Virus record (IMG/VR): IMGVR_UViG_3300032093_000005
Strand: one strand, 5' to 3'
Length of the DNA: 64,000 nucleotides
Source: a virus
Taxonomy: Duplodnaviria > Caudoviricetes
Shown: positions 5,392 through 48,883 of the stretch, one piece after another
Layout: every line of letters starts with the position of its first letter
How positions within the stretch are numbered: position 1 is the first letter of the stretch
Program-made: the position numbers and the translations under genes
The notes under the pieces: generated by a model
Seen by the model: only the letters and a program-made list of their open reading frames with translations
Told to the model about the DNA's origin: nothing
The model's database searches: none

Positions 5392-6702
5392 TTATTCAGG
5401 AGAAACCATTACAATAGGATTTTTTGCTCCTCTATATCTTGCACCAATTTTTGCAATACTCATTGCAGTTGGAACAGCACGAGCATCCATTTTTTCATCC
5501 TTCTTAAGATTCATTTTTTCAGCATCATCATTTTCACACTCAGATGCTTCCTTCATTGCTTGCTTACGAATTGTAGCAAAATAAACTTTCTTTCCTTTTT
5601 CTGCACCATATTGCTGTTGCATACTTGCCTTCATTCCAGAAGGATCATACTTCTTTTTTAACTTTTTTTCTTTTGTTTTCTCAGATTTATTCATCTTTTT
5701 TTCTTGAAGTATTCCAAGAAATTTTGAGTATCCAGTTTCAAGGATAACTTCACCATAAAGTTCAGTATGTGCTAAAACAGTATTTGATGGATTTACAACA
5801 ACCTTATTTTTTACTTTTGCTGGAAGAATATCAATTTGAGTTGCATTTGCATCAGGATTATCATATTCTGGGGCATCAGTTTGAGGCAAATTTGCCATTC
5901 TTGACACTTCACCGATGAATTCTTCTTTTACGTTTGATGTATCTTTACCATCAGGAACTCCACCTCTTTTACGTTGGATTGCATTATGAACTGAACCACG
6001 ATATTCTTTAGCGCCACTTTCAATTTTACCATCACCATCATAATCTCTCTTTGCTTTTCCTCCACCTAAAGCAGAAGCAGTTTGCTCTCCTTTTTTCTTT
6101 TCACCTTCATATGGAGTTCCATACTCAGTCATTTCAACTTCAAGACCTTTTGATCTAAGTTGGCTAATTTTTTCACGATTGGCATATCTTACATAAGTTA
6201 CATTACTTTTTTTATCAGTAACTCTTACTTTGTATTTTTTACCTTCGCTTGTATTATATTTGTTAAAATGTGCCTTTTCTTCCAAATCATATTTAAGTTG
6301 ATCTAGATCAACTACCTCATTTTTCTTTTCTACAAACACTTTATAGAGTGCTTTTGCCATCAAATCTGAAGCAGATACTTTCATATCCATTTCAAAATTT
6401 TCTGCCTGAGTTCCATCTTTACCAAAAAGTTTTTGTTTTACTGCCGATTTTTCTGCTTCACTCAGGCCACTATGTTGCATATATTCAGCATATGCAGTTT
6501 GTAGTGTTTTATTTTCTCTTCTACTTCTTAGACGAATATCAGAGGCAGCTTGACTTATTCTTTCCTCCTCCGTTTTTTCTACACCACTCTTTGGTTTGTT
6601 ATTACCTGCAGATGGTTTATTTGCTCCTGGTTTTGAAGGAGAAGACATTTGTGCTTGTGGATGCTTTCTTGCAGGAAGATCTTCAGCAATATGCTTTTTC
6701 AT
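5392..6702 (-). CDS. Putative capsid-internal/virion protein, charged and modular
   Basis: 436 aa, K/E-rich, contains DYDGDGKIE; ATAAATA at 6738-6744. Confidence 0.7.
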   Translation of the reverse strand: MKKHIAEDLPARKHPQAQMSSPSKPGANKPSAGNNKPKSGVEKTEEERISQAASDIRLRSRRENKTLQTAYAEYMQHSGLSEAEKSAVKQKLFGKDGTQAENFEMDMKVSASDLMAKALYKVFVEKKNEVVDLDQLKYDLEEKAHFNKYNTSEGKKYKVRVTDKKSNVTYVRYANREKISQLRSKGLEVEMTEYGTPYEGEKKKGEQTASALGGGKAKRDYDGDGKIESGAKEYRGSVHNAIQRKRGGVPDGKDTSNVKEEFIGEVSRMANLPQTDAPEYDNPDANATQIDILPAKVKNKVVVNPSNTVLAHTELYGEVILETGYSKFLGILQEKKMNKSEKTKEKKLKKKYDPSGMKASMQQQYGAEKGKKVYFATIRKQAMKEASECENDDAEKMNLKKDEKMDARAVPTAMSIAKIGARYRGAKNPIVMVSPE

Positions 6703-6711
6703 GAGAACAAT

Positions 6712-8046
6712 TTAACGTTTTACTTTTTTCCTATTTTTATTTATCAAATTAATACCATAAGGTTTTCCACCACTTTCAAGATTTTTAGCACCAACTCCAA
6801 TAACACCAGGAGTCATCATTGCAGCATATCTAAAAGCACCTAAAGTTCCAACTAACGTATTAGGTTTTCCTGGAAGTCGCATCATCTTATCCATTTGCTT
6901 TTCAGAGTAAGATTCTTTGACATCTTTAATCCAAGATTTAAACATCATCCCATTCTCAGTTACACAAATGAGATAATTAGTTCCTCTACGAATAATTTTA
7001 CCATTCAATCCAGTATTTAAATTTTCAACAAAGGTTCCAACTTTAAAAATACTTTCATCAATATAATTTTCTCTTAAAGATTTTTGATCAAATTTTGGAG
7101 CAATTTCCCAAGTATTATATCCTTCTTGCTGAATTTCTTGAATACCCATTCCTTGACGAACTAAATCAAAAAGTTCAAGTGCTTGTTTATTTCTAACTCC
7201 TTTTGGTAAAGCGGAACGGAAAGTCATAAAATCTCCCTCCGCTGCAGCAAGACGTGACCTTGATGCAGATACTCCTTCTACACCTTTATTACTATCAGGA
7301 TCCCTATCACCTGCAGAAAGAACATCAATCACATCAAACTGATATAGTTGTCCATTATAATCGTTTGATAATCTTTCAAATTCTTTGACTCGATCTGCAC
7401 CACCAACAATCCTTACGTTGCTGTATCCGTCATTATGTGCTTTTTTAAGCACATCAAAAATGGTTCTGTAATTGACATCATTGACAATTCTCTCACTATG
7501 GTCAGGGAACATCCGCCTCATGTATGAAATCTTAGTATCAGGATCTAGAGGATTTTTCTTTTTATCCTGACTACGAGAAGGGACAATGATATAATCACCA
7601 CCATCCTCCATTGCTGCCATTGCTGCAGTATCCATCAATTGTTGATGTCCAATGGTAGGAGGATTGAAACGACCAAAAGCAACAGTCAGAGTCCCTTTTG
7701 TTTTAGGAACGGGTGGCGGTGTTGCTACTGGTGCTTCTTCAGGTGCAGGTTGTTGATCCACTGCCTGCTGGTCCATAGGCACCTGTTCTTGAGGAGCAGG
7801 AGCAGAGGGTGCTGGGGCAGCAGATCCAAGAGGGATATTTTTTTCAAATTCTCCTTGCTTAGGATCCTTTCCACCGATCACTTGTCGCTTGTTGAAATAC
7901 TTCAATTGACCACTCACGGTCTTTGCCTCAAATTCACCAGTGGCCCTATTATACCACCCTCCGTGCCCATCGCCAACAAGTCCAAGACGTTTTGCCTGAA
8001 CTGATGCGGAGGTTGCCTCTGTAATGAATTGGGAAAATGTTTTCAT
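6712..8046 (-). CDS. HIGH-superfamily nucleotidyltransferase (cyanophage cytidyltransferase family) with T4 IP-like N-terminus
   Basis: FGRFNPPTIGHQQL (HIGH-like), VGGADRV, VSASRSR; N-terminus MKTFSQFITEA; ATAAATA at 8099-8105. Confidence 0.88.
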   Translation of the reverse strand: MKTFSQFITEATSASVQAKRLGLVGDGHGGWYNRATGEFEAKTVSGQLKYFNKRQVIGGKDPKQGEFEKNIPLGSAAPAPSAPAPQEQVPMDQQAVDQQPAPEEAPVATPPPVPKTKGTLTVAFGRFNPPTIGHQQLMDTAAMAAMEDGGDYIIVPSRSQDKKKNPLDPDTKISYMRRMFPDHSERIVNDVNYRTIFDVLKKAHNDGYSNVRIVGGADRVKEFERLSNDYNGQLYQFDVIDVLSAGDRDPDSNKGVEGVSASRSRLAAAEGDFMTFRSALPKGVRNKQALELFDLVRQGMGIQEIQQEGYNTWEIAPKFDQKSLRENYIDESIFKVGTFVENLNTGLNGKIIRRGTNYLICVTENGMMFKSWIKDVKESYSEKQMDKMMRLPGKPNTLVGTLGAFRYAAMMTPGVIGVGAKNLESGGKPYGINLINKNRKKVKR

Positions 8047-8120
8047 TCTAAACGAAATATTATTACAAAACTGTAACTATATTAACCTTTCTAATATCTA
8101 TTTATCCTTTATTTATTTGA

Positions 8121-8193: not shown

Positions 8194-8196
8194 AAA

Positions 8197-8269: not shown

Positions 8270-8278
8270 AAGAAAAGA

Positions 8279-8692: not shown

Positions 8693-8704
8693 TTTTTGAA
8701 ATAT

Positions 8705-15372: not shown

Positions 15373-15552
15373 TTAGTCTCCACCAGAATCACCAGAAGAA
15401 CCACCAGAACCACTATCAGTATCTAAAGCACATACTTTCTTTTTTGGTGCCATAGCATACTTTACAGTTCTACCATAACAATTTTCTTTGGTTTGTAAAG
15501 GTGGATTACCAAAATCACCTACCTTTTCCATAAACTGCTGAAAAGTTTTCAT
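15373..15552 (-). CDS. Micro-ORF (59 aa) with T4 IP-like N-terminus (not in the ORF track)
   Basis: MKTFQQFMEKVGDFGNPPLQTKENCYGRTVKYAMAPKKKVCALDTDSGSGGSSGDSGGD; CTAAATA at 15568-15574. Confidence 0.65.
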   Translation of the reverse strand: MKTFQQFMEKVGDFGNPPLQTKENCYGRTVKYAMAPKKKVCALDTDSGSGGSSGDSGGD

Positions 15553-16070: not shown

Positions 16071-16079
16071 CTAGATCAT

Positions 16080-21452: not shown

Positions 21453-21481
21453 ATTATATCAGAATGTACGGTTCAGGTCAA
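21453..21481 (-). promoter_or_regulatory. Sigma70-type promoter for the gp45-gp44-gp62-regA operon
   Basis: TTGACC-17 nt-TATAAT overlapping the cobS stop. Confidence 0.78.
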
Positions 21482-22601
21482 CTTCGTGACCGCCCTCAAT
21501 CGTCAATTCAAGTTCACTAGTGGGCATCTTGAAGTCAGCATCCACTTTATCATACAGTTCCAGAAATGCTTGCTTGGTTTCGTCATCAAAGCGGTTCACA
21601 CACACTTGAATTGCCTTCGCCTTATCATTGAAGATACTGTAGGCACGGATGATATGAACCAAGCGACGGGTGCTGATGATTTCCTCAATACCACCATCGT
21701 AGAAGGTCTTGCGGATGATGTCTGCCCAGTCTACCAGGCGCTTGCAGAAGTCACGGTCTTCCACTTGCAAGTCCAGAGCGATGCCTTCCAGAATCTTCTG
21801 TTCGGTAGCAGGGGCAGGATAGGACTGCTCAAAGGTCACAGGGAATCGTTCCAAGAATGCTTCATTAAGAACATTAGTGCCAATGAATCGACCATCATCA
21901 CTACCTTTACCTTTGGTATTAGCAGTAGCAAAGACATTAAATCCAGCAGAAGGTTTTACAAACTTACCAATCTTTTTCAGGAAGACACCTTTACCTTCCA
22001 GAATAGATTGAAGACACAGAATCTTGTTAGAAGCAAGGTCAATCTCATCCAGGAGTAGAATCGCACCCCTCTCAAGTGCTTCCACCACAGGACCATTGTG
22101 CCAGGCAGTTTCACCATTCACAAGACGAAAACCACCAATCAGGTCATCCTCATCAGTCTCAATCGTGATGTTGACACGAATCAATTCACGTTTCAGTTGG
22201 GCACAAGCTTGCTCCACACCGAACGTTTTACCATTACCCGAAAGACCCGTAATGAACGTAGGATAAAAAAGACGGGACTGAATAATCTTTTTGATATCAC
22301 CAAAATTACCAAACTTGACGAAGGTATCATCTTTATCAGGAATGAGGTTTTGTTCCACAGCAGGGAGGGCAGCAGGTGCTTGATAAGAACGCTCAATCTC
22401 TTCAACACGTTCTTGAGTAATTTCAAGATTCCAACGACCACGATCTGTTTTGAAAGGTTCAAGATAACGAGTTACCGTAGGATAAGAGATTCCTTTAGAT
22501 GCACAGTAACCACGAACATCTGCAGCAGAAAACTCAGTACCATACATAGACTTGAGTTCGGAAATGAGTTGTTCGTTATTCACAGAAGACTTGCGAGACA
22601 T
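21459..22601 (-). CDS. cobS: MoxR/CobS-like AAA+ ATPase with N-terminal helical domain
   Basis: GLSGNGKT Walker A, DEDDLIGG, LLDEID Walker B, ATAN, NEAFLERF, ISTRRL. Confidence 0.9.
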   Translation of the reverse strand: MSRKSSVNNEQLISELKSMYGTEFSAADVRGYCASKGISYPTVTRYLEPFKTDRGRWNLEITQERVEEIERSYQAPAALPAVEQNLIPDKDDTFVKFGNFGDIKKIIQSRLFYPTFITGLSGNGKTFGVEQACAQLKRELIRVNITIETDEDDLIGGFRLVNGETAWHNGPVVEALERGAILLLDEIDLASNKILCLQSILEGKGVFLKKIGKFVKPSAGFNVFATANTKGKGSDDGRFIGTNVLNEAFLERFPVTFEQSYPAPATEQKILEGIALDLQVEDRDFCKRLVDWADIIRKTFYDGGIEEIISTRRLVHIIRAYSIFNDKAKAIQVCVNRFDDETKQAFLELYDKVDADFKMPTSELELTIEGGHEVDLNRTF

Positions 22602-22693: not shown

Positions 22694-23734
22694 TCAACGC
22701 ATTGATGGGTTTCTTTCAGCAGCACTCATTGATCCATGATCTCTAGGATCATCATCATCTTCTCTGTCTCTCATTTGCTTTTGTCTTTGCTTTTTCATTT
22801 TTAAATTTTTCTGAGTCTCCAAATCAGCATCAGAAGTTTGTTGTGCTCTTGCAGTTGAAGATCCTCTTTTTCCTTTTGCCTGCAACTTATAAAAAAGGCG
22901 AGTTGCTTCATCAAGATCTTCTTTACTCATGTTTGCCATGAGAACTAAAGCATCTTGATTGGTATCAGCGTAACCTTCAGCAACTAAGTATTCAAGAAGG
23001 TAATCAAAAAGGTCTACTTCCTCTCTTACACCTGCAGATGGTCCGCCAGATCTATATCCAGCAACTCTCTGCGATAATGCTGATTTTTCTCTTGCCTTTC
23101 TTTGTGCTTCATCTTGTGGTTTGGTTGTCAATCCAGAAGTAACAGAACGATCTAAACCTCTGACAGTTGATGTTCCACTAGACATGCCAGTAGGTCTAGT
23201 TCCAACACCACCACCAAAATATCCAGGAGAAATAGGAGTTCTTGGTCCAGATGGTGCTGCCACAGTTGGTTTCTCTGGTGCTGCCATAGATCCTGGACCT
23301 TTTGGCATATCAACCATTAAAGGATTAGGAGTTTTTGTTAATTGTGGTTTTTGTGAAACAACTGGAGGTGTTGTTGTTTTATCTACTTTTGGTTTTTGTG
23401 CTGCAGGCGCAGTTACTTTTGGTTTTTCTCTTGGTGTTCTTTTTGGTCTTTCAGTTCTACCATCATCTCTTGTCTTTGGTGAAGGAAACTTTGGAATATT
23501 TACTCTAGGAATAGAATTATCAGGTTCAGGAAGGGTTAGTCCTGGAAAACGAGGAACTACTGAACGAACACTATATGGATTAATTAAACTTTTTACACCA
23601 TATTGAGTATCAGCAGCATGTGCCTCATCAATGAGATCAGATGAATTATTATACTCGTTTGCTTTCTCTCTCAATTCATCATTATAAACTGCCTCATACA
23701 TAAGGCGAATATCTTGAACCTGTTGGGAATTCAT
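22694..23734 (-). CDS. Putative capsid-internal protein (YLxxEGY family), Pro/Lys-rich
   Basis: EEVDLFDYLLEYLVAEGYADT; ATAAATA at 23760-23766. Confidence 0.72.
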   Translation of the reverse strand: MNSQQVQDIRLMYEAVYNDELREKANEYNNSSDLIDEAHAADTQYGVKSLINPYSVRSVVPRFPGLTLPEPDNSIPRVNIPKFPSPKTRDDGRTERPKRTPREKPKVTAPAAQKPKVDKTTTPPVVSQKPQLTKTPNPLMVDMPKGPGSMAAPEKPTVAAPSGPRTPISPGYFGGGVGTRPTGMSSGTSTVRGLDRSVTSGLTTKPQDEAQRKAREKSALSQRVAGYRSGGPSAGVREEVDLFDYLLEYLVAEGYADTNQDALVLMANMSKEDLDEATRLFYKLQAKGKRGSSTARAQQTSDADLETQKNLKMKKQRQKQMRDREDDDDPRDHGSMSAAERNPSMR

Positions 23735-23765: not shown

Positions 23766-25910
23766 TTACGCAACCAACTCCACAAACTCCCCAAGAATAC
23801 GCTTGTTCATCTTCTTAGACTTCAAACTCTTCACAAAAGCAGATTTGATTTGAGACTTGGTAGCATCTTCAGCAACCTCAAATTCAGATTCCTGAGCAAG
23901 AGTTGCGGCAGAAAGACCAAAGTAGGAATGATAACCAGAAGACTTGATAGTAAATGCCTTTTCTTTTTTCCAGGCATTCATCACCTTATCATAGGTGTCA
24001 CCATAATACCCACAATAGCGGCGAATAAAACCACCAGCATCACGAGATTCCAGAACACGAATACCGATAAAGTTCATATCAGTAAACCTGTCCCGAAGAT
24101 TGCGAAGCAGAACATCAGTGAACTCGTGATACTCACAATCGCAAGAATAAGTCATACCAGTCTTACGGTCACGGAGAAAGGCATTAGGACCGATATGAGC
24201 AGTGCCCATATAAGCGTCTTCCTCCCAGCGGCGTTGAACTTCACGGTGATACTTGAGCAGAGCACCCTCACCATCAGTCAGAATCACACACTGAACCTTC
24301 TGAAGCTTGTTTTCCTTCTGGAACTTAGGAAGAATCTGATGAAGAGAAATCAGTGCCTCATTCAGCGGAGTTCCCGAAAGACTCATACCCATAGGGGCTT
24401 GATAGGAAGTATAAGAATTATAACGGAAAGAAGTAGCAAGGCGGAAGATATTCTTCATCTGCTCATCCAGAGTCTTGCTGTTTACTTTGCTGGTAAGAAG
24501 ATTCATCATAGAGAACCATTCACCAACCTGAACGAGACCATCCTTTTTCTTATAAGCAAGTTCACGAATGTTTGCCTTACCATCTTCATACTTCACCAGA
24601 GGATAATCAGTAGTGAAGGCATAAACCTCAAACGGAATTGAGACCTTCTTACAGAACCAAACAAGGTTGAACAGTTGTTTGACCGTATCCATCATCACTT
24701 CGCACATAGAACCAGACCAGTCCAGAACGAACACCAGACCGTGATTCTTACCATCAGAAAGAGTGGTGACTTTCTTGAAAAGGTCTTCGTTATATTTGTA
24801 AGTATGAAGTTTGGTGCAGTCCAGAACACCAGTGCGAGCAGTGGTAGCACGGGCATAGGAATCTGCTGCCTTGCGACATTCAAACTCTTTTACCAGATAG
24901 TTGACTTCTTTCTGTGCAGAACGCTTGAACTCTACAAAATCCTTATCAACTTTACCAAACACATCAACATAGTTCCATTCACGATCTTGAAGAAAAGAAC
25001 TCCATGTTACTTTACACTTTTCATGGATTTCAGAATTGGGAACAATTACTTTATTAAGATCAAGTTTAGGAAGTTCAAGGTATACATTCTCATATCCATC
25101 ATTGTTAATGAGATCTTTAAGTGCTTCCTCAAGATTGTCCATCGTCTTAACTTCAGGTTCTTCACCATCATCAGGACTCTGAGAAGTAGGTTGCTTCTCC
25201 TGTCCAGTTTCACTCGTTGTGGGAGGTTGAGATTCACTATCAGATCCAGGTTGGTCATTCTCACCCTCTTGCTGATCTGAAAAATCAGAGGCAGGTTGTT
25301 GACTTGCACCAGAATCCTGAGACTCCAGATTATCAATTGGAGTCTTAGTTTCTTCCTGTTGCTTTTGCTTACAATACTTATAAAGTGCCTCAGAAGCAAT
25401 CAAAACATCGGCAAAGGTCTCAGTATCGGCAATCAGATTGATAATCTCAGTCTCTTCACCACGTTCAATAGGTACATCAATATAGTTACCGATCTTGAAC
25501 CAAAGGTTGGCACGGTCAGCAAGATTATAGGTTTCCAGATTGTCGTCTTTGAGTTGGAAGAAATCATCATCGGCAAGTTCTTTATAACCGTTATAGAAAG
25601 TCTTGGCAAGACCAGGATAACGGCGTTTCATCAGTTTTTCGATACGAGCATCCTCTACAATGTTCACAAACTGAGGAGGGACTTTAACTTGCTTAGTCCA
25701 GTCCTCATCGGGAGTATAAAGAGCATGACCAACTTCATGACCAACCAGAAGGTCATAAACAGTGTTGCTTGCCTTTTCCCACATCGGCAGGGTCAACACA
25801 CGGGTGTGTACATTGAACTGAGCAGTCTCTACCTTCTTGTGCTCAACCACAAGGTCTTCGGTGGCAAGCAGTTTGGCAAGTTGAGACTTGATTTCGTGGC
25901 GAACGGTCAT
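23766..25910 (-). CDS. HExxH metallopeptidase-VWA domain protein (CobT-like partner)
   Basis: VGHEVGHALYT; NIVEDARIE; MIDAS LDWSGS; SGTPLNEAL; ILTDGEG; start MTVRHEIK. Confidence 0.88.
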   Translation of the reverse strand: MTVRHEIKSQLAKLLATEDLVVEHKKVETAQFNVHTRVLTLPMWEKASNTVYDLLVGHEVGHALYTPDEDWTKQVKVPPQFVNIVEDARIEKLMKRRYPGLAKTFYNGYKELADDDFFQLKDDNLETYNLADRANLWFKIGNYIDVPIERGEETEIINLIADTETFADVLIASEALYKYCKQKQQEETKTPIDNLESQDSGASQQPASDFSDQQEGENDQPGSDSESQPPTTSETGQEKQPTSQSPDDGEEPEVKTMDNLEEALKDLINNDGYENVYLELPKLDLNKVIVPNSEIHEKCKVTWSSFLQDREWNYVDVFGKVDKDFVEFKRSAQKEVNYLVKEFECRKAADSYARATTARTGVLDCTKLHTYKYNEDLFKKVTTLSDGKNHGLVFVLDWSGSMCEVMMDTVKQLFNLVWFCKKVSIPFEVYAFTTDYPLVKYEDGKANIRELAYKKKDGLVQVGEWFSMMNLLTSKVNSKTLDEQMKNIFRLATSFRYNSYTSYQAPMGMSLSGTPLNEALISLHQILPKFQKENKLQKVQCVILTDGEGALLKYHREVQRRWEEDAYMGTAHIGPNAFLRDRKTGMTYSCDCEYHEFTDVLLRNLRDRFTDMNFIGIRVLESRDAGGFIRRYCGYYGDTYDKVMNAWKKEKAFTIKSSGYHSYFGLSAATLAQESEFEVAEDATKSQIKSAFVKSLKSKKMNKRILGEFVELVA

Positions 25911-25931
25911 GGGTTTGTTGCGTATGAACCT

Positions 25932-25987
25932 ATCATACAAAAAAAGAGGGTGATGAGACCCTCTAGTGTGCCAGTTTGAAAAGTGTC
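25932..25987 (-). promoter_or_regulatory. Motif-hairpin-(-10) promoter, copy 2
   Basis: GACACTTTTCAAACTGGCACA, AGAGGGT/ACCCTCT hairpin, T-run, TATGAT. Confidence 0.7.
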
Positions 25988-27910
25988 TTAATTTAGTTTT
26001 TTAGGTTTTGGTTTGGTAGATGAAGGTGGTTTGCCTTGAAGAGCACTCTGTATTTTACCTGGAAGTTCATCAACAAATTTTACAACAGATGCTGGCATTT
26101 GGGGAGCACTTCCACCAGTAACTGCTTCAACAATATTTTGTTTCCAATCTTCACTCATTGCACCAGCGATTGCTTGTGCTGACTTTTCATCAGAAGCAAA
26201 ACCCTCACCAAGAAGATAATCTACAAGAAGTTCTTCACGAACTGAGCGAATATTTTCATATTCAGATCCACTACCTCTACTGCCAGTCATTCTATGTTGA
26301 GAAAAAGTATCCCCTACTCTTTCATCTCCACGCTTCTTTCTTTCTACTCTTCTTTTCTTTTCAAATTCATGTCTTTTTTTAGGACTCATTTTTTTCTTTG
26401 GTATTGGAAGTCCCGTAATACCTTCTTCAGTTTCGTCTTTTGCTTCGTAAATTGCGTTTTCTTTCATTTTAGTAGTGTACTCCTTTCCACCATAAGTGAA
26501 TGTTGTTGGAACTGGATCTCCAATTCTCTTTGCCTCCTTTTCCTTTCTTTTTGCCTCTCTGAATGCATCATCAAATGTAGAACCAATCTTACGAGAACCA
26601 ACTTTTAAGCGACTACGAATTTGTCCTGTTGGTTTATCTACAGATGGTGTATCAATAGTATTATAAACATTAGTTTTTATATTCTTTCTCAATTCAGCAT
26701 CACTTCTACGCTTTTCACCCTTCATTGCTTGATCAACTGCTACAGTTCCAGCAGCTGCTGTACCAACAATTCCCGCAGTTTTTAGATTTCTTGATAAAGA
26801 AGAAATTGGAGATTTTGACGAACCACCAGAAGAAGATGATCCTGTTGCATATTTTTCTAAACCTGGATACTTCATATTTCCAGTTTTTTCTGTGGGTGAT
26901 AAAGTAGCGCGAACAGTTTGTGTCAAACCACTACCTTTAGATGATTTTCCACCCCCAGAAGTAGGTGTCTTTGAAGTTGGTTTAGGTGCTCTTGTACTAA
27001 CTAATGCTCCTGCTGGTTGTGCTACCTTTGGATCTTTAGGTAATGCTTCTGGTTTAAAGGTTGGCTTAGGTGCTTTTGTACGAACTAATGCTCCTGGAGG
27101 TTCGGCAGACTTTGTTGCCTTAGGAAGTGCTTCTGGTTTAAAAGTTGGTTTAGGTGCTCTTGTAGAAACTAACGCTCCACCAGGTTCTCCCGTTGTTTTT
27201 GCTTTAGGAAGTGCTTCTGGTTTAAAGGTTGGTTTAGGTGCTTTTGTACGAACCAATGCTCCTGCAGGTTCAGCAGACTTTGTTGCCTTAGGAAGTGCTT
27301 CTGGTTTAAAAGTTGGTTTAGGTGCCTTTACACTTGCAGATGTTTTTCCTGCCGAAGGAAGTGCTGGTCTGGATGGTGTACTGGGTAATGCCTTAGTAGA
27401 AGATACTTTAGGACCAGAAGGTTTAGATGGATTTATACGACTGCTAGGTGCTGTTGGTTCATTCCAAACATTAGTTGTAATTTTATTTGCACCTTTTGGA
27501 GCAGTTCTAACAGAAGTTGCTTTTACTGTTCTAACTATTGGTGCTGGAGATGGCGTAGACTTTGCAATAGTTTTTGCAATTTTAGCAGTCGATACTGGAT
27601 TTAATGCGGTACTAGTAATAAGAGAATCAGTAGCTGCAGTTCTTAATGGTGTTTTTGCTCTTTTTGCAATAAATCCCGCTACTGCCTTTGCACCCTTAAT
27701 TAAAGATCCTAGACCTGCCTCACTAATAATTTCTGCCATGATCTGTTTAGATTCTTCTTCAGAGTATCCTTCATTTAGAAGATACTCTAAAACCTGATCA
27801 TAGATATCAATTTCTTCTTGAACATCATTTTCCGAATGTACATCAATATGCTCATAAACTTTTTGATATGCCTCTACAAAATCTCTATATTTTTTATCGT
27901 ACATCTTCAA
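25988..27910 (-). CDS. Putative capsid-internal protein (YLxxEGY family) with internal tandem repeats
   Basis: Two YLxxEG(Y/F) modules flank a P/K/A/T-rich region; TATAAATA at 27926-27933. Confidence 0.75.
   Translation of the reverse strand: MKMYDKKYRDFVEAYQKVYEHIDVHSENDVQEEIDIYDQVLEYLLNEGYSEEESKQIMAEIISEAGLGSLIKGAKAVAGFIAKRAKTPLRTAATDSLITSTALNPVSTAKIAKTIAKSTPSPAPIVRTVKATSVRTAPKGANKITTNVWNEPTAPSSRINPSKPSGPKVSSTKALPSTPSRPALPSAGKTSASVKAPKPTFKPEALPKATKSAEPAGALVRTKAPKPTFKPEALPKAKTTGEPGGALVSTRAPKPTFKPEALPKATKSAEPPGALVRTKAPKPTFKPEALPKDPKVAQPAGALVSTRAPKPTSKTPTSGGGKSSKGSGLTQTVRATLSPTEKTGNMKYPGLEKYATGSSSSGGSSKSPISSLSRNLKTAGIVGTAAAGTVAVDQAMKGEKRRSDAELRKNIKTNVYNTIDTPSVDKPTGQIRSRLKVGSRKIGSTFDDAFREAKRKEKEAKRIGDPVPTTFTYGGKEYTTKMKENAIYEAKDETEEGITGLPIPKKKMSPKKRHEFEKKRRVERKKRGDERVGDTFSQHRMTGSRGSGSEYENIRSVREELLVDYLLGEGFASDEKSAQAIAGAMSEDWKQNIVEAVTGGSAPQMPASVVKFVDELPGKIQSALQGKPPSSTKPKPKKLN
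26975..27325 (-). repeat. Coding tandem repeat, 84-bp unit x4 plus a partial unit
   Basis: APKPTFKPEALPK-x7-GALV(RTK/STR) repeated; 351 bp = 4x84+15. Confidence 0.93.
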
Positions 27911-30044: not shown

Positions 30045-31082
30045 TTATTCTACCTCGCAAGCTTGTCGATAAAGATCTTGAAAAATACCTTTGATAATGT
30101 TTTTATCAAATTCAAATTCTGCTTCGTCAATGTAACGATTCAGAATAGACATTGTATTTTCTTCTTCATCAACCTCAAAATCTTCGTTCTCTTGAATATC
30201 AAAGTTTTCTACGATTTTGAGATCTTGAATTCCTGCCGTATAAAGTTTGTCAATAAACTTCTCAAAATCCTTTGGTTTAGATTTTTTACGAACGATCACT
30301 TTTACAATCTTGTTTTCATACTCTGTAGTATCAAACAATTGGTAGGGTGTATCCTCATAATAAATGTTATAGAATAATTTATAAGGATTATTAATTGGAG
30401 TGTGCTCTAAGGTTTTAGTATCAAAGATATGAAATCCCCGAGTATCATTTACATCAGTCCAATACATTTCATAAGGATTACCAAGATAGAAGATAGATCC
30501 ATTGTCAGAACGAGTATGGTAATGTCCAGAAAATACTTTTGTGAAGTTCTTAAAAATATCTGCTTCCAGTCCATGCTCCTCCATAATCAAATTGCGATTA
30601 ACACGGAACCCTTGAAGTTCTAAGTGTCCCATTGCAACTTTTGCTTTGGTCTTTTTAATTTGCTTAAAAGTTTGTTCTTGATTTTCTGGGTTGATCCAAG
30701 GCAAGAACAAAATCTTGAGTCCACCAATACTAACTTCCGTTGCTTCACTATAAGTCTTAATGTTTGAATAAGTCTGAAGAAGAAGACCAGGAGAGTTCAC
30801 ACTATTAGTTGATTTATAGTATGTGTCATGATTTCCAATAATCATATGTACATCATACTTTTTAAGATGGTCAAACACAACTCTTTTTGACCACTCAAGA
30901 CTTTGATAATCAATTGACTTGCGACTATCAAAAGCATCGCCCATATGAATGACTGCCTCTACATTGTTTTCTTCAAGGGCAGGAAAAAATACATTCTTGT
31001 AAAAGAGTTCAAAATAATCGTGAAGATGTTTAGACCCTTTTTTGGCACCGTAGTGACTATCAGTAATAATTGCTACCTTCAT
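30045..31082 (-). CDS. gp47: Mre11-like recombination nuclease subunit (gp47-like)
   Basis: ITDSHYG, HMGDAFD, IGNHD, GHLE, SGHYH metallophosphoesterase motifs. Confidence 0.97.
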   Translation of the reverse strand: MKVAIITDSHYGAKKGSKHLHDYFELFYKNVFFPALEENNVEAVIHMGDAFDSRKSIDYQSLEWSKRVVFDHLKKYDVHMIIGNHDTYYKSTNSVNSPGLLLQTYSNIKTYSEATEVSIGGLKILFLPWINPENQEQTFKQIKKTKAKVAMGHLELQGFRVNRNLIMEEHGLEADIFKNFTKVFSGHYHTRSDNGSIFYLGNPYEMYWTDVNDTRGFHIFDTKTLEHTPINNPYKLFYNIYYEDTPYQLFDTTEYENKIVKVIVRKKSKPKDFEKFIDKLYTAGIQDLKIVENFDIQENEDFEVDEEENTMSILNRYIDEAEFEFDKNIIKGIFQDLYRQACEVE

Positions 31083-31594
31083 TTATTGCGGTATTGGATG
31101 GCGTCTTTAATGGAATTATACTCCGAACTGTGCCCAGAAAGCAAGCTGTCGTCAACCATCATCACCTCATCAAACCCAGTGCGTTCAATAATTTTTGTCT
31201 TAATATCCAGTTGTTTCTTTTCCTTTTGAATCCTTCTCAGAAATGCGTAGTGAATAATCTGAGTAAAGTAGGCAAAAGGATTCTTGGACTTCTCTGGATC
31301 AAAGTTGTGAATGTATTGGACACAATTCTCAATTCCGTCAGAAATCATATCCTCTCGGAACATATAGTTGACGAAGTTTGGTTTGTATGATAAATGAGTC
31401 GCAATCTTTAGAAAACACTCACCAAGATAATTTGGAATTGGTGGTTTACCTTCCCACTGCTTTGCACGATCCTCTCTAGTTGGATTTCGTGCATTCTTTT
31501 TAAAAAAATCTGCTTCGACTTTAGAACGATAAACTACAAGTGCTTCTAATAGTTCTTTATTATTTACATAATGTTCAGTTTTTTTCTTGGACAT
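31079..31594 (-). CDS. gp55: Late-transcription sigma factor (gp55-like)
   Basis: HYVNNKE...FVNYMFREDMISDGIENC...NPFAYFTQI. Confidence 0.96.
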   Translation of the reverse strand: MSKKKTEHYVNNKELLEALVVYRSKVEADFFKKNARNPTREDRAKQWEGKPPIPNYLGECFLKIATHLSYKPNFVNYMFREDMISDGIENCVQYIHNFDPEKSKNPFAYFTQIIHYAFLRRIQKEKKQLDIKTKIIERTGFDEVMMVDDSLLSGHSSEYNSIKDAIQYRNK

Positions 31595-34659: not shown

Positions 34660-36081
34660 TCACATAAGATTTGAAACCTTAACTCTTCTGTAGTATACGT
34701 TAGAGTTGGTAGCAATGTTACCACTTGTTGCATCTGGAGCAGTAGCTCCCTTAGCAAATGGATTGTTAACGACTCCATAACGAGTCTTAAATCCGATTTT
34801 TGGTTGGAAGGTTTGCTCACCAACAGCACGTACCATCTGGAGAGGTACGTATGGGCAGTAGAAGAGACCTGCATCGTAAGGCGAGGTGCCCTTATAACCG
34901 ACAACGTAGAACTGGTTAGCAGCAACGTTTGCCGAATATGGGTCAATATAGACTCTGTACTTACCTTGAAGGACACCAGCAAAGGTGTTGCCAGTATCAT
35001 CAACGTTCAGATTAGCGTTAAGTGCAGGGGTGTAATCGAGAACACCAGCCATGGTTAGTGCTGAAGCAACGTCTGCCGAGCACAGGATAGTGTTACCCTT
35101 TCCTCTACGAGTTTGCTGTGCAATTGCGTTTGCATCGCGCTCGATTTGGAAGATGAGACCCTTGAACTTCTCAACCGACCAACGACCGTTAGAGTCAACA
35201 TCAAGGTCAAAAGTACCTTGGGTTGCAGTGTTAACCTGAGCACCAGGAACAGCAATCTTATAGATGGTACGGATGATTTCTCTGTTGATTTCAGCGAGGA
35301 TCTCAGTGCTGAGGATGTTTGCAAGCTCAGCTTCTGCATTCAGACCGTGAATTGCCTTCAGGTCTTGTGCAAGTTCGAGTGAGTACTCAGCTTTCAGAGC
35401 ACGTGACTTAGCAGTAACGGTGAGCTTCTCGATTGAGAAAGCCATCTCGTTAAAGTAGTTGGTATTGCCGTCGCCAAGTGCTTCAGCATTACCAGTGGTC
35501 ATTGCTTCACCAACGTTATACTGGTTAGCACCAGCAGCAGCGTTAGTTGATTGATCAGTTGGGCTGAGAAGTGCTGGGTTGCGGTTGCTATCTTGAGTTG
35601 TAGTACCTAAACCAACAGCTCCATCGATGAATCCTGCATTGAGGTTACGGGAGTTATTCTGACCAGAGAATGCAGAATCAGCTTCGTTGTAGAATGCTTC
35701 AGTTCCAGATTGATTCTGATAACGTGAACGCATTGCGAAGATGAGTCCAGTAGGACCATTCATTGGTTGAACACCGCACAGATCATAAGCGATCAGGTTG
35801 GGCATTGAACGTCTGATCAGTGAGATCAGAACTGGATCGAAACCAGCAACAGGTGAACCTGTAGTATTTGATGCGCTACCACCAAAACCGCCGGTACCGG
35901 CAGAGTTGGTTGGGGATGCTTCGTAAAGGAATGAACGCTCTTCACGAAGTTCTCTTTCTTGGTTTTCGAGCAGGATAGCGGTTACCGATCTACGATGTGA
36001 ATCTTTGATTGGATCCATTCCTTGATAATCAAGGATTGGTGCCCACTTCTCCTGCAGATATTCGGAGTTGTACATCTGCAT
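34660..36081 (-). CDS. gp23: Major capsid protein
   Basis: FDPVLISLIRRSMP, QPMNGPTGLIFAMRS, EYSLELAQDLKAIHGL, FQPKIGFKTRYG. Confidence 0.99.
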   Translation of the reverse strand: MQMYNSEYLQEKWAPILDYQGMDPIKDSHRRSVTAILLENQERELREERSFLYEASPTNSAGTGGFGGSASNTTGSPVAGFDPVLISLIRRSMPNLIAYDLCGVQPMNGPTGLIFAMRSRYQNQSGTEAFYNEADSAFSGQNNSRNLNAGFIDGAVGLGTTTQDSNRNPALLSPTDQSTNAAAGANQYNVGEAMTTGNAEALGDGNTNYFNEMAFSIEKLTVTAKSRALKAEYSLELAQDLKAIHGLNAEAELANILSTEILAEINREIIRTIYKIAVPGAQVNTATQGTFDLDVDSNGRWSVEKFKGLIFQIERDANAIAQQTRRGKGNTILCSADVASALTMAGVLDYTPALNANLNVDDTGNTFAGVLQGKYRVYIDPYSANVAANQFYVVGYKGTSPYDAGLFYCPYVPLQMVRAVGEQTFQPKIGFKTRYGVVNNPFAKGATAPDATSGNIATNSNVYYRRVKVSNLM

Positions 36082-36129: not shown

Positions 36130-37308
36130 TCACTTTTTAGCGACTCTACTGAGAGTTTGAAGATATGCTTCCATGACAGGGGAAACTGAAGTTAATTCAG
36201 ATCCATCATGCGACACTTCTTCAGATAGGTTCTCAGAGAAATCTCTTTGAGTACCAGTATTTGTTGGGAAATATGATTCCCTCAGAGTTACCAGTTTCTC
36301 ACGATAGTTTGCTTCACTATCAAACTCAACATTTTCGGCAAGAGAAGCGAGTTTGTCTTTCTGAGAAAGTGCAAGACCTTCAGCGACATCTGCAAAAATT
36401 ACATCAGCAACTGACTCTGCTAATCTTCTATTGAGAGCAACGTTTCTTTCGATTTGCTCGTTGAGTTTTTCTTCCATTTCATCAAGTTTATCTACCATAC
36501 TCTCGATAACATCATATCTATCTTCAGGGATTGAAACATAATGATCTTCAAAAAGACTCTTCATTCCTTGAAGGAATGATTCGGTCATTTCAGTCTTAAG
36601 ACCGTGCTCGATAGCGAGTGCATTTTCTTGAATCCACTCGTCGGCAACGTACTCAAGATAAGTATCTACACGCTCAGTTAATTCTTCTTTGATAAACTGA
36701 ACTTCTTCAATAAGTGCATTTTCATAAGTTTGCTGAAGTTCTTCTTTAATTTCAGAAACTTTTGAACGAATAGCAGCTTCGAAGATGGTGCGGGCTTTCT
36801 CTTGGAATTCCTCAGAAAGCTCTTCACCAGCAAGGAGAGCGTTGACATCTTCTTCGATGTCAAACTCTTCTTCCATTTTCTTCTTACCTTTTTTCTTACC
36901 ACCTTCTTCTTCTTCCTCCTCTTCTTCTTCCTCTTCTTCTTCCTCTTCTTCGTGCTTCTTGCCTTTCTTGCCTTCAGCAACTACCTCTTCATCTTCGTCG
37001 AGTTCTTCTTCATCGACAAGATCCTCATCCTCTTCAGTTTCTTCTGCAGCCATGGTTTTCATGGGTTCAGCAGCAGCTGCTTTAGCATTAACTACATTTC
37101 TTACCTGAGCAAGAGTTGATCCAGGTGTTTTAAGTGCAGCGGAATCGTCATCTGGACGATAATTTTCTGGAGTAGGACCACCTAAATCTTCCCAAGCGCC
37201 AGTTTGACCTGGAGTAATGGCTCCAGTTCCAGTTTGCATTGGTTCGGCAGGTGCAGCCCCTTTGGTTACTACGTTTTCCATTTCTTGTAAATTTCTACCA
37301 ACGGACAT
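36130..37308 (-). CDS. gp22: Prohead core scaffold protein
   Basis: Acidic coiled coil, IFEAAI, YLEYVADEW; lies between gp21 and gp23; TATAAATA at 37339-37346. Confidence 0.95.
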   Translation of the reverse strand: MSVGRNLQEMENVVTKGAAPAEPMQTGTGAITPGQTGAWEDLGGPTPENYRPDDDSAALKTPGSTLAQVRNVVNAKAAAAEPMKTMAAEETEEDEDLVDEEELDEDEEVVAEGKKGKKHEEEEEEEEEEEEEEEEGGKKKGKKKMEEEFDIEEDVNALLAGEELSEEFQEKARTIFEAAIRSKVSEIKEELQQTYENALIEEVQFIKEELTERVDTYLEYVADEWIQENALAIEHGLKTEMTESFLQGMKSLFEDHYVSIPEDRYDVIESMVDKLDEMEEKLNEQIERNVALNRRLAESVADVIFADVAEGLALSQKDKLASLAENVEFDSEANYREKLVTLRESYFPTNTGTQRDFSENLSEEVSHDGSELTSVSPVMEAYLQTLSRVAKK

Positions 37309-37348: not shown

Positions 37349-37999
37349 TTATAGATTTGAAAGAAAATCGTTGAAAAGATTGAGTTTATGCTCTTCAAGT
37401 TTTCTTTGATCAACGAGAGTATTAATTCTTCTTTGAGTCTGTTCGGCAAGTTTTTCACGAAGAATTCCACCTTCCCAAACCCACTCTTTTCCTTCCATAA
37501 TTCCTTGCACAAAAGCATCAGGTGCAGAAGGATCGGCAACAATGTCAGCAGCAGTCGCAAGCATGAAATCTTCACCAACAATTTTATGACCTTCATTGGT
37601 CATCTTTAGTGAACCAACACCACGAGAAGAAACACCAAGACAAACTCCCTCACCAATAAGAGATTTTGCAATCTTACCCATTGGCGTTTCAAGAAGTTGT
37701 GCCTTACCTCTAAAATTTGATCCTTCACAAGTAAGAGAAACAATCTTGTGAGAAACACGATCAAGATTTACAGTTGGACCATCAGGATGTCCAAGTTCTC
37801 CAAGAGCACGACCTTTATTGACAAATGCTTCCGTGTATCTTTTCACCTCTCTGGAAAGAGTTTCCATAGGATACATTCTTCCGTTACGGTTACAAATGTC
37901 ACCCTGAAGGAAAATACCTTCAATAAACATTTTTTTATCAGCACCTTTTCCTTCGGTGATGAATTTTACTTGTGATACTTCTTCTGTGATGAGTTTCAT
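37349..37999 (-). CDS. gp21: Prohead protease
   Basis: NRNGRMY, GELGHP, GVSSRG, DIVADPSAPDAFV. Confidence 0.97.
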   Translation of the reverse strand: MKLITEEVSQVKFITEGKGADKKMFIEGIFLQGDICNRNGRMYPMETLSREVKRYTEAFVNKGRALGELGHPDGPTVNLDRVSHKIVSLTCEGSNFRGKAQLLETPMGKIAKSLIGEGVCLGVSSRGVGSLKMTNEGHKIVGEDFMLATAADIVADPSAPDAFVQGIMEGKEWVWEGGILREKLAEQTQRRINTLVDQRKLEEHKLNLFNDFLSNL

Positions 38000-45482: not shown

Positions 45483-45489
45483 AATTTAT

Positions 45490-46764: not shown

Positions 46765-46767
46765 TAA

Positions 46768-47082
46768 TCAATCACTCCAGGTTAAACTTTCTGGTCTATA
46801 TCTTTGTGCATTTTTAATCTTTAAGGAATTGTTTGTTGATGGATAAATGTTGTGAACAATTGCTCCAGGATATTCACCCTGCAATTGTTCAGCAAGTGCA
46901 TTTTTATCCATCATCTTACCTTCAACTTCCATACGATATAATTTTCCTTGCCAAACAACATCGGCAAGAAAAGATTCACCAACTGGTTCTGACTGTGATT
47001 CAGAACTATTTACATAGAGATTTCCATTGAAGTCTCCTGCAATATTTACGCTTTCTGAAAGAAACTCTTTGAATGATTTCAT
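46768..47082 (-). CDS. Small protein with T4 IP-like N-terminus
   Basis: MKSFKEFLSES... Confidence 0.75.
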   Translation of the reverse strand: MKSFKEFLSESVNIAGDFNGNLYVNSSESQSEPVGESFLADVVWQGKLYRMEVEGKMMDKNALAEQLQGEYPGAIVHNIYPSTNNSLKIKNAQRYRPESLTWSD

Positions 47083-47083
47083 T

Positions 47084-48883
47084 TTAGTTACAGTTCCAAC
47101 GACGGAGTGCTTTGTTGATTCTTGAATCTGGGTCTCTTGCAGTTTTTGCTGAAGTAAGTTTTGAACGCATTCCTTTCATACGACTACAAAAATTCTTACG
47201 TCTTTTTGCTCTTTTACCTTTTGGTTTTTTTTCAGTTACTGCGGTTTGAAGTTTAGAACCTGGATTTTCTTTGCGATAAGCATTAACTGCTGCTTGACTT
47301 AATCCATCAGTTTTATCTTTACGATTTACTGATTGCCAATCTTCCGATAATCCAAAATCTGCTCTCCAATTAGAAAACTCTTCCGCCTTAACACAGTTTG
47401 GATGTCTCTTTCCAAACATTGTTTTCATTCCTTTCTTTTTATAACCAGGCCAACACTTCTCATCAATTACTTCACCTTTTGGTTCATAATGTGCAACTTG
47501 TACCTTTGTTTCTTTTTTTGCTAGTGGAAGTTGTGGTCCAGTTCTTTTTAAGAAAATTTCCTTTTCATATGGATTGTCTGTACTGGATCCTTTATTATAA
47601 AGTTTTTGTCTTTTTTGCAAATCCTTATGCTTTTGTGGATCAATAGGTGGAAGCATTTGCTCTTTCATTTCTCCACTGTCAACATAATCTGCAGCAGAAT
47701 CTAAGTAGTCTGCTGCTTTAGTAATTTTTGATTGTACCCATGCTTCAATATTACCTTCACCATTCTTCATTTTTTTGCGAAGTCTTTTTGCCGCAGAAAT
47801 AATTGTAGAAATTTCTGATCGAGCCATTGAATACTCATGATCATATCCTTCTGGCATATTTCCAGGATGTGGTGTATTTGGAGTGTATTTTTTACCTAAA
47901 CCGATTGGAAGAGAATACATATCCCAGTAATTTTTACCATACTTGCACTCATCACGAGTTTCATCCTTTTGACATTTTGGGCAATATCTAATCATTTGAG
48001 CCTCCTCTGATTTAGTTCCCCAATTAGAAGCACCAACTTTACGACACTTGACCAGTGCTCCAGATGCATATGCACTTGGCCAGACATCATATCTTGCTTT
48101 AACTTTGTGATAACAAGCATCTTTGGAACCACTACCTTTTCCTGGTTTATCTTTTTGTGCTTCGTTAAGTTCCATTGCTTCTTTAATTCCTGGTTCTGCT
48201 TTTACGTAATTTGGATCTTTTTTACCCTTAGCAAAAGTTGGAACATTAGTTGGTGCCATCGCTCCAGATTTTGCTTGTTGCCCCTTATCTTTCTGTCTTT
48301 TTCTACGAATTGCTGATCTAATTAACGATTTTCCTTTTTTACCCTTTTTCTTCAATGATCTCAATCTGGCGCTACTAAAACATTTAGGTGTTTTAGTTTC
48401 TCCAGGTTCATTAGCACAGGGTGAACCATCTGCTTGAACCCATCCAGGTTTTCCACCTTTCGATTTTGAACCTCTGAACCAATGATGAAGAGTTCCTTCA
48501 GAAACAGAAACATCTTTGAACTTTTTATGTTCTTTCTTTGCTTTTGCTTCCATCTTTTTCAAGCGAGTATAATAATCGGGAATCTCATCTAAATGTTGAA
48601 GAGCAATATCAATTGCAAGGTCTTTGTCTTTTGTGTGTTCATGCTCAATAGGAACTCCCATTTTGAGTTGATTTTTTATAAAAGAAACTTCCATACGATG
48701 TTTCTTTGCAATTTGTTCAACTGTTTTATGAGACTTAACTTCATGCATTTCACTAAATGGTGATTTTGATTTAATATCTTCACCCTTTGCTCTTTTTTTA
48801 CGAGCAGCACAATGAGATTTCTGTGAGAATCCACTGGGATTCTCACAGTTTATTGATCGTTTATATTTGTCAGACCAACTCAT
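47084..48883 (-). CDS. Modular, basic, Cys-containing putative internal head polyprotein
   Basis: Concatenated short modules separated by xxE sites; CTAAATA at 48906-48912. Confidence 0.75.
   Translation of the reverse strand: MSWSDKYKRSINCENPSGFSQKSHCAARKKRAKGEDIKSKSPFSEMHEVKSHKTVEQIAKKHRMEVSFIKNQLKMGVPIEHEHTKDKDLAIDIALQHLDEIPDYYTRLKKMEAKAKKEHKKFKDVSVSEGTLHHWFRGSKSKGGKPGWVQADGSPCANEPGETKTPKCFSSARLRSLKKKGKKGKSLIRSAIRRKRQKDKGQQAKSGAMAPTNVPTFAKGKKDPNYVKAEPGIKEAMELNEAQKDKPGKGSGSKDACYHKVKARYDVWPSAYASGALVKCRKVGASNWGTKSEEAQMIRYCPKCQKDETRDECKYGKNYWDMYSLPIGLGKKYTPNTPHPGNMPEGYDHEYSMARSEISTIISAAKRLRKKMKNGEGNIEAWVQSKITKAADYLDSAADYVDSGEMKEQMLPPIDPQKHKDLQKRQKLYNKGSSTDNPYEKEIFLKRTGPQLPLAKKETKVQVAHYEPKGEVIDEKCWPGYKKKGMKTMFGKRHPNCVKAEEFSNWRADFGLSEDWQSVNRKDKTDGLSQAAVNAYRKENPGSKLQTAVTEKKPKGKRAKRRKNFCSRMKGMRSKLTSAKTARDPDSRINKALRRWNCN

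Follow-up and report, generated by a model that had tools for sequence, protein, structure and literature searches.

A candidate T4-type capsid targeting sequence on late genes of a freshwater T4-like cyanomyovirus

The IMG/VR record IMGVR_UViG_3300032093_000005 supplied the stretch of 64,000 nucleotides (nt) analyzed here, hereafter the window, which comes from a T4-like cyanomyovirus (Kyanoviridae) of a freshwater lineage and has all of its genes on the minus strand. Three of these genes begin with a sequence resembling the capsid targeting sequence (CTS) of coliphage T4. The open reading frames (ORFs) at 8046-6712, 15552-15373, and 47082-46768 start MKTFSQFITE, MKTFQQFME, and MKSFKEFLSE, and encode an enzyme of 444 amino acids (aa) and two small proteins of 59 and 104 aa. 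We consider it likely that the products of the tagged genes are transcribed late, docked on gp22, cut by gp21, and retained in the head, and we hold this most firmly for the enzyme. The best-supported passenger is this nicotinic acid mononucleotide/nicotinamide mononucleotide (NaMN/NMN)-adenylyltransferase-like enzyme on its long disordered tether. Four untagged late proteins from the same islands, of 599 and 436 aa and two (346 and 638 aa) that share an acidic module, probably belong to the virion (Table 1).

In the mechanism that we propose, gp55-dependent transcription from NATAAATA-type late promoters would express genes scattered over the replication and structural regions. The tag, MK-x-(F/Y)-x-x-F-(I/L/V/M)-x-E, would dock each precursor on the gp22 core during prohead assembly, as in the T4 internal proteins IPI-III, and the serine protease gp21 would cut it off after Glu10, or after Glu9 in the case of the 59-aa protein. 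The mature protein would stay with the DNA in the head and probably leave with it at infection. We infer docking, cleavage, head location, and injection by analogy with T4, and a role of the cargo in host takeover or anti-defence may be envisaged. The motif, its pattern of conservation, its portability, the late motifs, and gp21, gp22, and gp23 were observed in the present study, and the virion mass spectrometry of relatives is taken from published papers.

A six-frame scan of the 64 kilobases (kb) for MK(S/T)(F/Y/L/W)...F...E matched only the gene starts at 8046, 15552, and 47082, exactly the three for which a first-pass annotation, made from the sequence alone, had claimed T4-like leaders. 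The tighter motif MK(S/T)FxxF(I/L/M)x0-1E had three matches in the window and none in 300 shuffles, and about 8e-5 tagged gene starts are expected among 64 genes given the window's own amino-acid composition. The motif of the three genes is not a chance match. The decapeptide that the annotation had given for the T4 internal proteins was read in the T4 genome (NC_000866), where IPII and IPIII start MKTYQEFIAE-A (here and below, a hyphen before the last part of a motif marks the cleavage position) and IPI starts MKTFKEF.... In T4, residues 1-10 of IPIII are enough for packaging, with targeting mainly via residues 4 and 7 and processing via residues 8 and 10 (PMC9026906). The targeting determinants F4 and F7 are present in all three tagged window proteins, and two of these have processing sites, ITE-A and LSE-S, with an aliphatic residue at position 8, Glu at position 10, and a small residue after it.

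Conservation of the enzyme leader follows the same positions. The motif stands at the start of all 80 enzyme orthologues taken from IMG/VR (64-90% identity). Over the 65 distinct sequences among them, K2, F7, and E10 have a frequency of 1.00, A11 of 0.97, and F4 of 0.95 (otherwise Y); position 8 is I in 0.80 (otherwise L/V), and positions 3, 5, 6, and 9 vary (0.38-0.62). The fixed positions are thus the T4-critical ones (4, 7, 8, and 10) together with K2 and A11, which supports the comparison with the T4 CTS. Synonymous codons differ at the fixed residues, and position 8 is written with eight codons, all for I, L, or V; selection has therefore been at the level of the peptide, not at that of DNA or RNA.

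The enzyme precursor consists of the leader MKTFSQFITE-A, a small conserved N-domain, a disordered Pro-rich tether (residues about 55-115), a nucleotidyltransferase core (about 117-300), and a poorly modelled C-terminal part. Pfam PF01467 (CTP_transf_like) matched residues 123-224 with 29.3 bits against a cut-off of 21, and the best Foldseek matches of the AlphaFold2 (AF2) model were NadD and NMN adenylyltransferase (NMNAT), with E values of 2e-5 to 1e-4, followed by phosphopantetheine adenylyltransferase (PPAT). Assignment as an NMN adenylyltransferase at the equivalog level failed in NCBIfam (TIGR01526, 20.5 bits vs. 341; TIGR00482, 16.8 vs. 112), and a sequence search of the Protein Data Bank (PDB) gave no match, because of which we describe the protein, with the support of its model, as no more than a NaMN/NMN-adenylyltransferase-like nucleotidyltransferase. 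Invariant alignment columns hold the nucleotide-binding motif GRFNPPTxGH, which we take to resemble the GRFQPxHxGH of NadM/NadR-type enzymes. In the AF2 model the tag begins an N-terminal helix (residues 4-20) that is followed by a small beta unit, and a disordered stretch of about 60 residues separates the helix from the confident Rossmann core. This arrangement and the model of the 104-aa protein, described below, fit a tag on a flexible leash.

Relatives of the enzyme have been found repeatedly in purified cyanophage particles. In S-SM1 virions the "cytidylyltransferase" T4-GC190 was detected with 25 peptide counts (Sullivan et al. 2010, Table S8); T4-GC190 is SSM1_190 according to its GenBank note, and its N-terminus reads MKKFSAFLNE-A. 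S-SCSM1 ORF91 ("NMNAT") and S-SZBM1_140, both published as detected in virions, start MKSFLQFLKE-A and MRFRQFIIE-A, so that the tag is present in all three of the N-termini read. Together with S-CREM2 ORF154 these proteins belong to the same family as the window enzyme, which is 47% identical to ORF91 and 49% identical to the S-SM1 protein over residues 117-414. In S-SM1, S-SCSM1, and S-SZBM1 the enzyme gene and its neighbors were all detected by virion mass spectrometry, in support of the first-pass proposal that late islands of virion genes lie inside the replication region. These detections in relatives support packaging of the enzyme. The papers on the four phages report detection, leave true encapsidation open, and do not mention a targeting sequence; the tag probably explains why the enzyme's relatives recur in the particles.

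Evidence on late expression comes from NATAAATA-type motifs upstream of the genes and from their strand bias. NATAAATA is the published cyanomyovirus late promoter, read with gp55 (PMC2984593), and the gp55-type factor encoded in the window would read such promoters. The core (A/C)TAAATA has 27 copies on the coding strand vs. 3 on the other, most of them intergenic and 9-36 nt upstream of a start codon. Of the seven genes that the annotation had placed behind this motif, six have a copy of their own. CTAAATA lies 15 nt upstream of the 59-aa gene, and further copies stand 25 nt upstream of the 346-aa gene and 35 nt upstream of the 436-aa gene, the last of these within the end of the preceding enzyme gene, whose late transcript the 436-aa gene probably shares. 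Upstream of the 638-aa gene, TATAAATAT at 27932-27926 is 15 nt from a TTG and 21 nt from the likelier ATG (27904). The seventh gene, for the 104-aa protein, has no late motif of its own and abuts the 599-aa gene; the CTAAATA ahead of the latter probably serves both. Among the enzyme orthologues, 66 of 80 have a late motif within 90 nt upstream.

The tag is portable between unrelated proteins. The nearest isolate is S-SRM01, a Synechococcus phage from fresh water whose DNA is about 81% identical to the window over 73% of a 20-kb query; it matches the window in gene order and was used as a stand-in for the remainder of the genome. S-SRM01 has eight exact tag matches, all on the coding strand, with none on the other strand and 0-1 in reversed-pattern controls; when position 3 is relaxed, nine gene starts are tagged, for proteins of 53-447 aa. 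An IMG/VR scan for MKTFQ(Q/E)F placed the motif, among the matches listed, at the first Met of an ORF in 78 of 82 cases, with a late motif within 60 nt for 60 of the 78 ORF starts, and the matches listed include relatives of the window's 59-aa, 104-aa, and 599-aa proteins. Once the first 12 residues had been removed, the 77 usable ORFs fell into at least 37 unrelated clusters. The exact form MK(S/T)(F/Y)xxF had no match in S-SM1, S-PM2, Syn9, or P-SSM4, and the strict motif misses these marine members because their enzyme leaders have Lys at position 3.

Three further CTS-like strings were seen outside the window. T4 gp61.1 (NC_000866 18966-19130, minus strand), a hypothetical protein of 54 aa encoded beside the primase gene, starts MKTFKEFIKE, a CTS-like start within the T4 replication cluster, comparable with the tagged 59-aa gene next to the DNA polymerase gene of the window. 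A truncated ORF in IMGVR_UViG_3300046804_005083 starts MKTFQEFIAE-A, which was scored as identical to the T4 IPII/IPIII tag, and continues into a domain with ...YGPGVYTST..., a motif that may be reminiscent of ADP-ribosyltransferases. In S-SCSM1 ORF93, a 69-aa virion protein (L067:6127-6336), a CTS-like string, ...KKKRTFKEFLEYIE, stands at the C-terminus and not at the N-terminus.

The head machinery on which the tag would act is encoded in the window, as the annotation had stated for gp21 and for the FLYE-A junction of gp23, and both statements are borne out by Pfam matches and by alignment with T4. The GEL.HP and GVSSRG.GS motifs of gp21, with the catalytic His and Ser, align with T4 gp21, and this protease is the presumed tag-removing enzyme. 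The scaffolding core protein gp22 is the presumed docking partner of the tag. A complex prediction for the gp22 C-terminal domain and the 104-aa protein scored 0.00, but was run without controls and weighs neither way. The propeptide junction of gp23 reads ...FLYE-A here vs. ...FLTE-AEIGG in T4. Window gp21 itself starts MKLITE-EVSQVKFITE-G, with two (I)xE sites within its first 16 residues; N-terminal self-processing at a similar place has been suggested for T4 gp21 (PMC9026906).

The closest known system is that of T4 IPI-III (Mullaney and Black 1996; reviewed in PMC9026906 and PMC3012670), in which MKTYQEFIAE-A corresponds to MKTFSQFITE-A of the present enzyme. In both, position 4 is aromatic, 7 is Phe, 8 is aliphatic, and 10 is Glu, and the residue that comes next is small. 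Late promoters (predicted from motifs in the window), the gp21, gp22, and gp23 machinery, and diverse unrelated cargo behind a constant tag are also common to both. In contrast to IPI-III, the mature parts have no detectable homology to those proteins, an enzyme of 444 aa with a disordered tether and small peptides that contain Cys are among the cargo, and the genes are spread over the replication and packaging regions, whereas those of T4 lie in one IP locus. Packaging, cleavage, and injection are known in T4 and are predicted here. T4 Alt, an ADP-ribosyltransferase, is likewise an enzyme that a T4-type phage carries in its head; gp21 processes it, and it enters the host together with the DNA (PMC9026906). 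The present enzyme differs in being a HIGH-motif nucleotidyltransferase and in having a leader of another type. Many head-internal proteins, some of them enzymatic, are cut after Glu by a gp21-family protease in SPN3US and phiKZ-like giant phages (PMC5694885, PMC7411985, PMC10052503), whose ejection proteins carry propeptides. These propeptides are longer than the present leader and different from it, and the cleavage consensus is another one.

The untagged late proteins are linked to virions by their relatives. The 599-aa protein has as orthologues the virion proteins SSM1_115 (T4-GC119, 13 peptide counts) and SSCSM1_29, and in at least three of its IMG/VR relatives MKTFQEFILE-A stands ahead of the DUF5661 module. 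An ORF of 363 aa (L071_363, in IMGVR_UViG_3300032324_000315) has the CTS tag followed by DUF5661 and other modules of the 599-aa family, and its C-terminus (YPGAIV...PST) is weakly like the core of the 104-aa protein (24% over 68 aa, pairwise E value of 1e-5 without composition correction). It may be a fusion that links the adjacent 599-aa and 104-aa genes of the window, and we treat it as a lead. The further late gene for a 342-aa protein, in the same island as the 436-aa gene, matches the S-SM1 virion protein SSM1_195 (T4-GC425, 17 peptide counts) in its N-terminal half, with 31% identity over 200 aa.

Two of the untagged proteins have conserved starts. The 436-aa protein starts MKKHIAE(D/E)LP, and across 75 neighbors of enzyme orthologues this start takes the form M(K/T)(K/T)(H/K)I(A/F/S)E(D/E)LP. 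We take the propeptide of T4 Alt to be like both this MKKHIAE- and the MKLITE- of gp21. Relatives of the 346-aa protein carry a near-identical N-terminal segment of about 30 aa, containing MYE-A, on bodies of 197-493 aa with differing C-termini, all behind a late motif; this segment might act as a leader of a second type. Common to the 346-aa and 638-aa proteins and the virion protein SSCSM1_89 is an acidic module, ...D(Y/L)LLxEG(Y/F)A.... The 638-aa protein is very basic and rich in Pro, Thr, and Ser, and its residues about 195-310 hold four tandem repeats of about 29 aa (APKPTFKPEALPKA.K.AEP.GALV.T.) with a high content of Pro, Thr, and Lys. The C-terminal motif H(P/G)S(L/M)SA(R/A)ERNP(N/S)(L/M)R ends the 346-aa protein and many orthologues of the 436-aa protein, although not the 436-aa protein of the window, and was noted in connection with S-SRM01 gp259 as well. 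This distribution suggests that end modules are exchanged among late proteins of the 346-aa and 436-aa types.

Several points weigh against the cargo reading. The case for the window phage is indirect, being built on sequence and on relatives. The site of the 59-aa protein, FME-K, is atypical, being one residue shorter and having Phe at P3. S-CREM2 ORF154 was found in virions with three unique peptides, and its authors considered co-purification of abundant late proteins possible. In virions of S-PM2 and Syn9 no member of the enzyme family was detected, though Syn9 gp184 is tagged, and the S-SCSM1 orthologue of the 104-aa protein, which has 106 aa and the tag, is absent from the proteins marked as belonging to the virion. 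For the untagged genes, the annotation had taken (I/L/V/M)xE sites to punctuate the proteins, and we reject these sites as evidence of processing, both measures of them being at background: their density in the four genes is 1.7-2.3 per 100 aa, compared with 1.9 in the CobT-like neighbor and 2.3 in the portal gp20, and in 42 orthologues of the 599-aa protein Glu conservation is 0.77 within (L/I/V/M)xE sites vs. 0.70 elsewhere. Direct homology of the 436-aa protein to the downstream virion genes of S-SCSM1, S-SM1, Syn9, and S-SZBM1 was not shown; its link to virion proteins is positional (the gene at the same place encodes a virion protein in S-SM1, GC1454; S-SCSM1, SSCSM1_92 or ORF92; and S-SZBM1, S-SZBM1_139), because BLAST was blank and the mosaic phrog_3326 was matched in different regions.

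These last points bear on the alternative that survives best, which we regard as a serious possibility though not the favored one: that the four untagged proteins have a structural or accessory place on the outside of the particle (neck, whisker, fibre, or decoration) or do not enter the virion at all, and that the system consists of three tagged genes lying near other late genes by chance. The four lack a T4-type tag, their (L/I/V/M)xE sites are at chance level, mass spectrometry of their relatives gives presence in particles and not position, and the 599-aa gene sits among neck, terminase, and tail genes. Against this, the four resemble internal proteins in their strongly basic character, modular build, and mostly low-complexity sequence, although the K/E-rich composition ascribed to them in the first pass holds for three (Lys 12.5-16.4%) and not for the 346-aa protein (Lys 7.5%). 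Relatives of the 599-aa protein carry the tag, one apparently fused to a domain like the 104-aa core, and the near-constant start of the 346-aa protein on variable bodies, with its MYE-A, behaves as a second leader would. We lean toward virion association of the untagged four, and give less credence to their being internal cargo, since presence in particles does not place a protein inside the head. The T4-like cargo reading of the first-pass annotation holds up for the three tagged genes, and best for the enzyme, through conserved positions, portability, and virion relatives; for the untagged genes the virion relatives speak for virion association, and the protease-site signature is at chance level.

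The two small tagged proteins call for separate consideration. The 59-aa protein, MKTFQQFME-KVGDFG..., belongs to a family with at least eight IMG/VR relatives, which read either FME-(K/R)VGDFG or, with the leader extended, (I/V)(I/L)xE-MxGD(F/Y)G. In the 104-aa protein, MKSFKEFLSE-SVNIAGDFNG..., MKSFxxF(I/L)(S/T)ES is kept by 120 of 120 close homologues. The AF2 model has residues 1-33, the leader and linker, disordered, with a predicted local distance difference test (pLDDT) score below 50, and a compact alpha/beta core at 36-104 with a pLDDT of about 90. Clustering of the family at 50% gave 53 representatives, of which three longer ones carry, between the tag at the extreme N-terminus and the core, a basic insert (25 to about 150 residues) followed by (L/V)xE. 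The core of these longer forms begins (S/N)(V/I)(N/S)I.G, with the junctions YLNE-NVNIEG, NLGE-SVNISG, and DVNE-SISISG, and the Glu that immediately precedes the core has a conservation of 90% or more regardless of the upstream sequence. Such a pattern would be expected of a protease junction.

Fold searches with the 104-aa core gave no significant match. The best Foldseek result was T7 Gp2, with an E value of 0.08 and a template modelling (TM) score of 0.70 on the target, and VIA-align gave Z scores of 4.2 or less, with Gp2 at 3.9, level with ribosomal and PurS-like folds. With Gp2 tied with unrelated small folds at these values, a Gp2-like function is not claimed. Two RNA-polymerase binders, T7 Gp2 and YkzG, come nearest to the core, though not significantly, and give no more than a lead for a function that might be directed at host transcription.

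It is improbable, in our judgment, that the 59-aa and 104-aa proteins, though sent to the prohead core by the tag, are parts of that core or its assembly and not delivered cargo, being cut up and expelled before or during DNA packaging like T4 gp67, gp68, and gp22. Such a role would suit the location of the 104-aa gene between gp16 and gp17, within the block for head formation and packaging, the absence of its S-SCSM1 orthologue from the listed virion proteins, and the small size of both proteins, neither of which has a significant match to an effector fold. However, the 104-aa core is well folded and conserved, unlike a scaffold peptide, small proteins are readily missed in shotgun mass spectrometry, and T4 IPI and IPII, of comparable size, remain in the head.

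That the conserved N-terminus serves another role altogether (translation initiation or mRNA structure, a recombination joint, or an amphipathic helix binding something else), the virion signals being carry-over of abundant late proteins as raised by the S-CREM2 authors, is a very remote prospect even with the gene shuffling via promoter and terminator motifs that reportedly occurs in T4-like phages, given that synonymous codon variation speaks against a nucleotide-level signal, that the conserved leader positions are the mutationally defined positions of the T4 CTS, that the fused 104-aa forms keep the (L/V)xE junction even far from the start codon, and that four independent virion preparations yielded the enzyme, that of S-SM1 with 25 peptide counts.

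Table 1. Tagged genes, untagged late genes, promoter motifs, and head genes of the 64,000-nt window
Feature	Coordinates	Strand	Remarks
Further late gene, 342 aa	4070..5098	minus	Same island as the 436-aa gene; TATAAATAT 31 nt upstream
Lys-rich 436-aa protein	5392..6702	minus	Immediately downstream of the enzyme gene; phrog_3326 at 5e-21; candidate virion protein
Tagged enzyme precursor, 444 aa	6712..8046	minus	Pfam PF01467, phrog_395, AF2/Foldseek
Ten leader codons of the enzyme gene	8017..8046	minus	Candidate capsid targeting sequence; predicted cut after Glu10
Late-motif pair AATAAATA, GATAAATA	8099..8116	minus	52 and 63 nt upstream of the enzyme gene
59-aa tagged peptide	15373..15552	minus	Two conserved Cys; between the DNA polymerase and Hsp20/RegA genes
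346-aa late protein	22694..23734	minus	N-terminal ~30 aa MNSQQVQDIRLMYE-AVYNDEL...; acidic module DYLLEYLVAEGYA
638-aa basic, low-complexity late protein	25988..27904	minus	ATG at 27904; two acidic-module copies
gp55-type late sigma factor	31079..31594	minus	Sigma70_r2; S-SRM01 orthologue annotated as late sigma factor
gp23 major capsid protein	34660..36081	minus	Pfam Gp23; propeptide junction ...FLYE-ASP at residue 54
gp22 scaffolding core protein	36130..37308	minus	Pfam T4_CASP at 1e-79; phrog_237
gp21 prohead protease	37349..37999	minus	Pfam Peptidase_S77 at 3e-36
104-aa tagged protein	46768..47082	minus	Between gp16 and gp17; phrog_1742
599-aa Lys-rich modular protein (DUF5661 ... DUF6321)	47084..48883	minus	Pfam, phrog_727; no tag; candidate virion protein
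CTAAATA	48906..48912	minus	22 nt upstream of the 599-aa gene

From high to low coordinates, the window begins with baseplate and neck genes, followed by gp16, the 599-aa and 104-aa genes, a gene for a 424-aa virion protein, and gp17, and then by gp18, gp19, gp20, gp21, gp22, gp23, and gp3. UvsY, UvsW, gp55, gp47, and gp46 come next, and after them the 638-aa gene, a CobT/midasin-like gene, the 346-aa gene, and CobS. The clamp and clamp-loader genes, RegA, Hsp20, the 59-aa gene, and DNA polymerase follow, and the series ends with UvsX, helicase, MazG, the cytidylyltransferase-like enzyme gene, the 436-aa gene, primase, and NrdA. The CobT/midasin-like gene (23766-25940, minus strand, 724 aa) is annotated as a "peptidase" in S-SRM01 and as "midasin" in S-SCSM1, has an HEVGH motif near its N-terminus and a weak CobT-like PHROG match, and lies between two late low-complexity genes and two genes from the CobS/MoxR ATPase gene (21459-22601). 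It is not counted as cargo, its S-SCSM1 counterpart not being a virion protein.

CTS-directed head cargo is known from T4; our literature search found no paper describing it for cyanophages, and among the papers searched "capsid targeting sequence" and "cyanophage" co-occurred only in a T4 review. T4-like cyanophages are among the most abundant viruses of lakes and oceans. The NMNAT-like enzymes, kinases, and S-adenosylmethionine (SAM) hydrolase found in purified cyanophage particles have puzzled several groups, with true packaging left undecided, and the conserved T4-type tag offers both a packaging mechanism and a simple, testable sequence rule for head-borne proteins, one that marks at least 37 unrelated protein families in the IMG/VR sample. 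CTS fusions are the way in which foreign proteins are loaded into T4 heads, so usable tools are a further prospect of the tag, and the proteins that it marks become candidates for first-minute effectors aimed at the metabolism or defence of cyanobacteria.

More tentatively, the T4 decapeptide may be an ancient, portable address label common to coliphage T4 and aquatic cyanomyoviruses. Its presence on about nine genes in this freshwater lineage, including a tethered NAD-pathway-like adenylyltransferase, an iron-sulfur protein, and small Cys peptides, would then represent a pre-made toolkit acting before phage gene expression, and the N-terminus of about 30 aa of the 346-aa type might be a second, undescribed class of label. 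We hold this wider reading to be doubtful as yet. If it is true, the proteins carried into the cell would be readable directly from sequence, and the toolkit could, for example, restore NAD+ against NAD-depleting defences.

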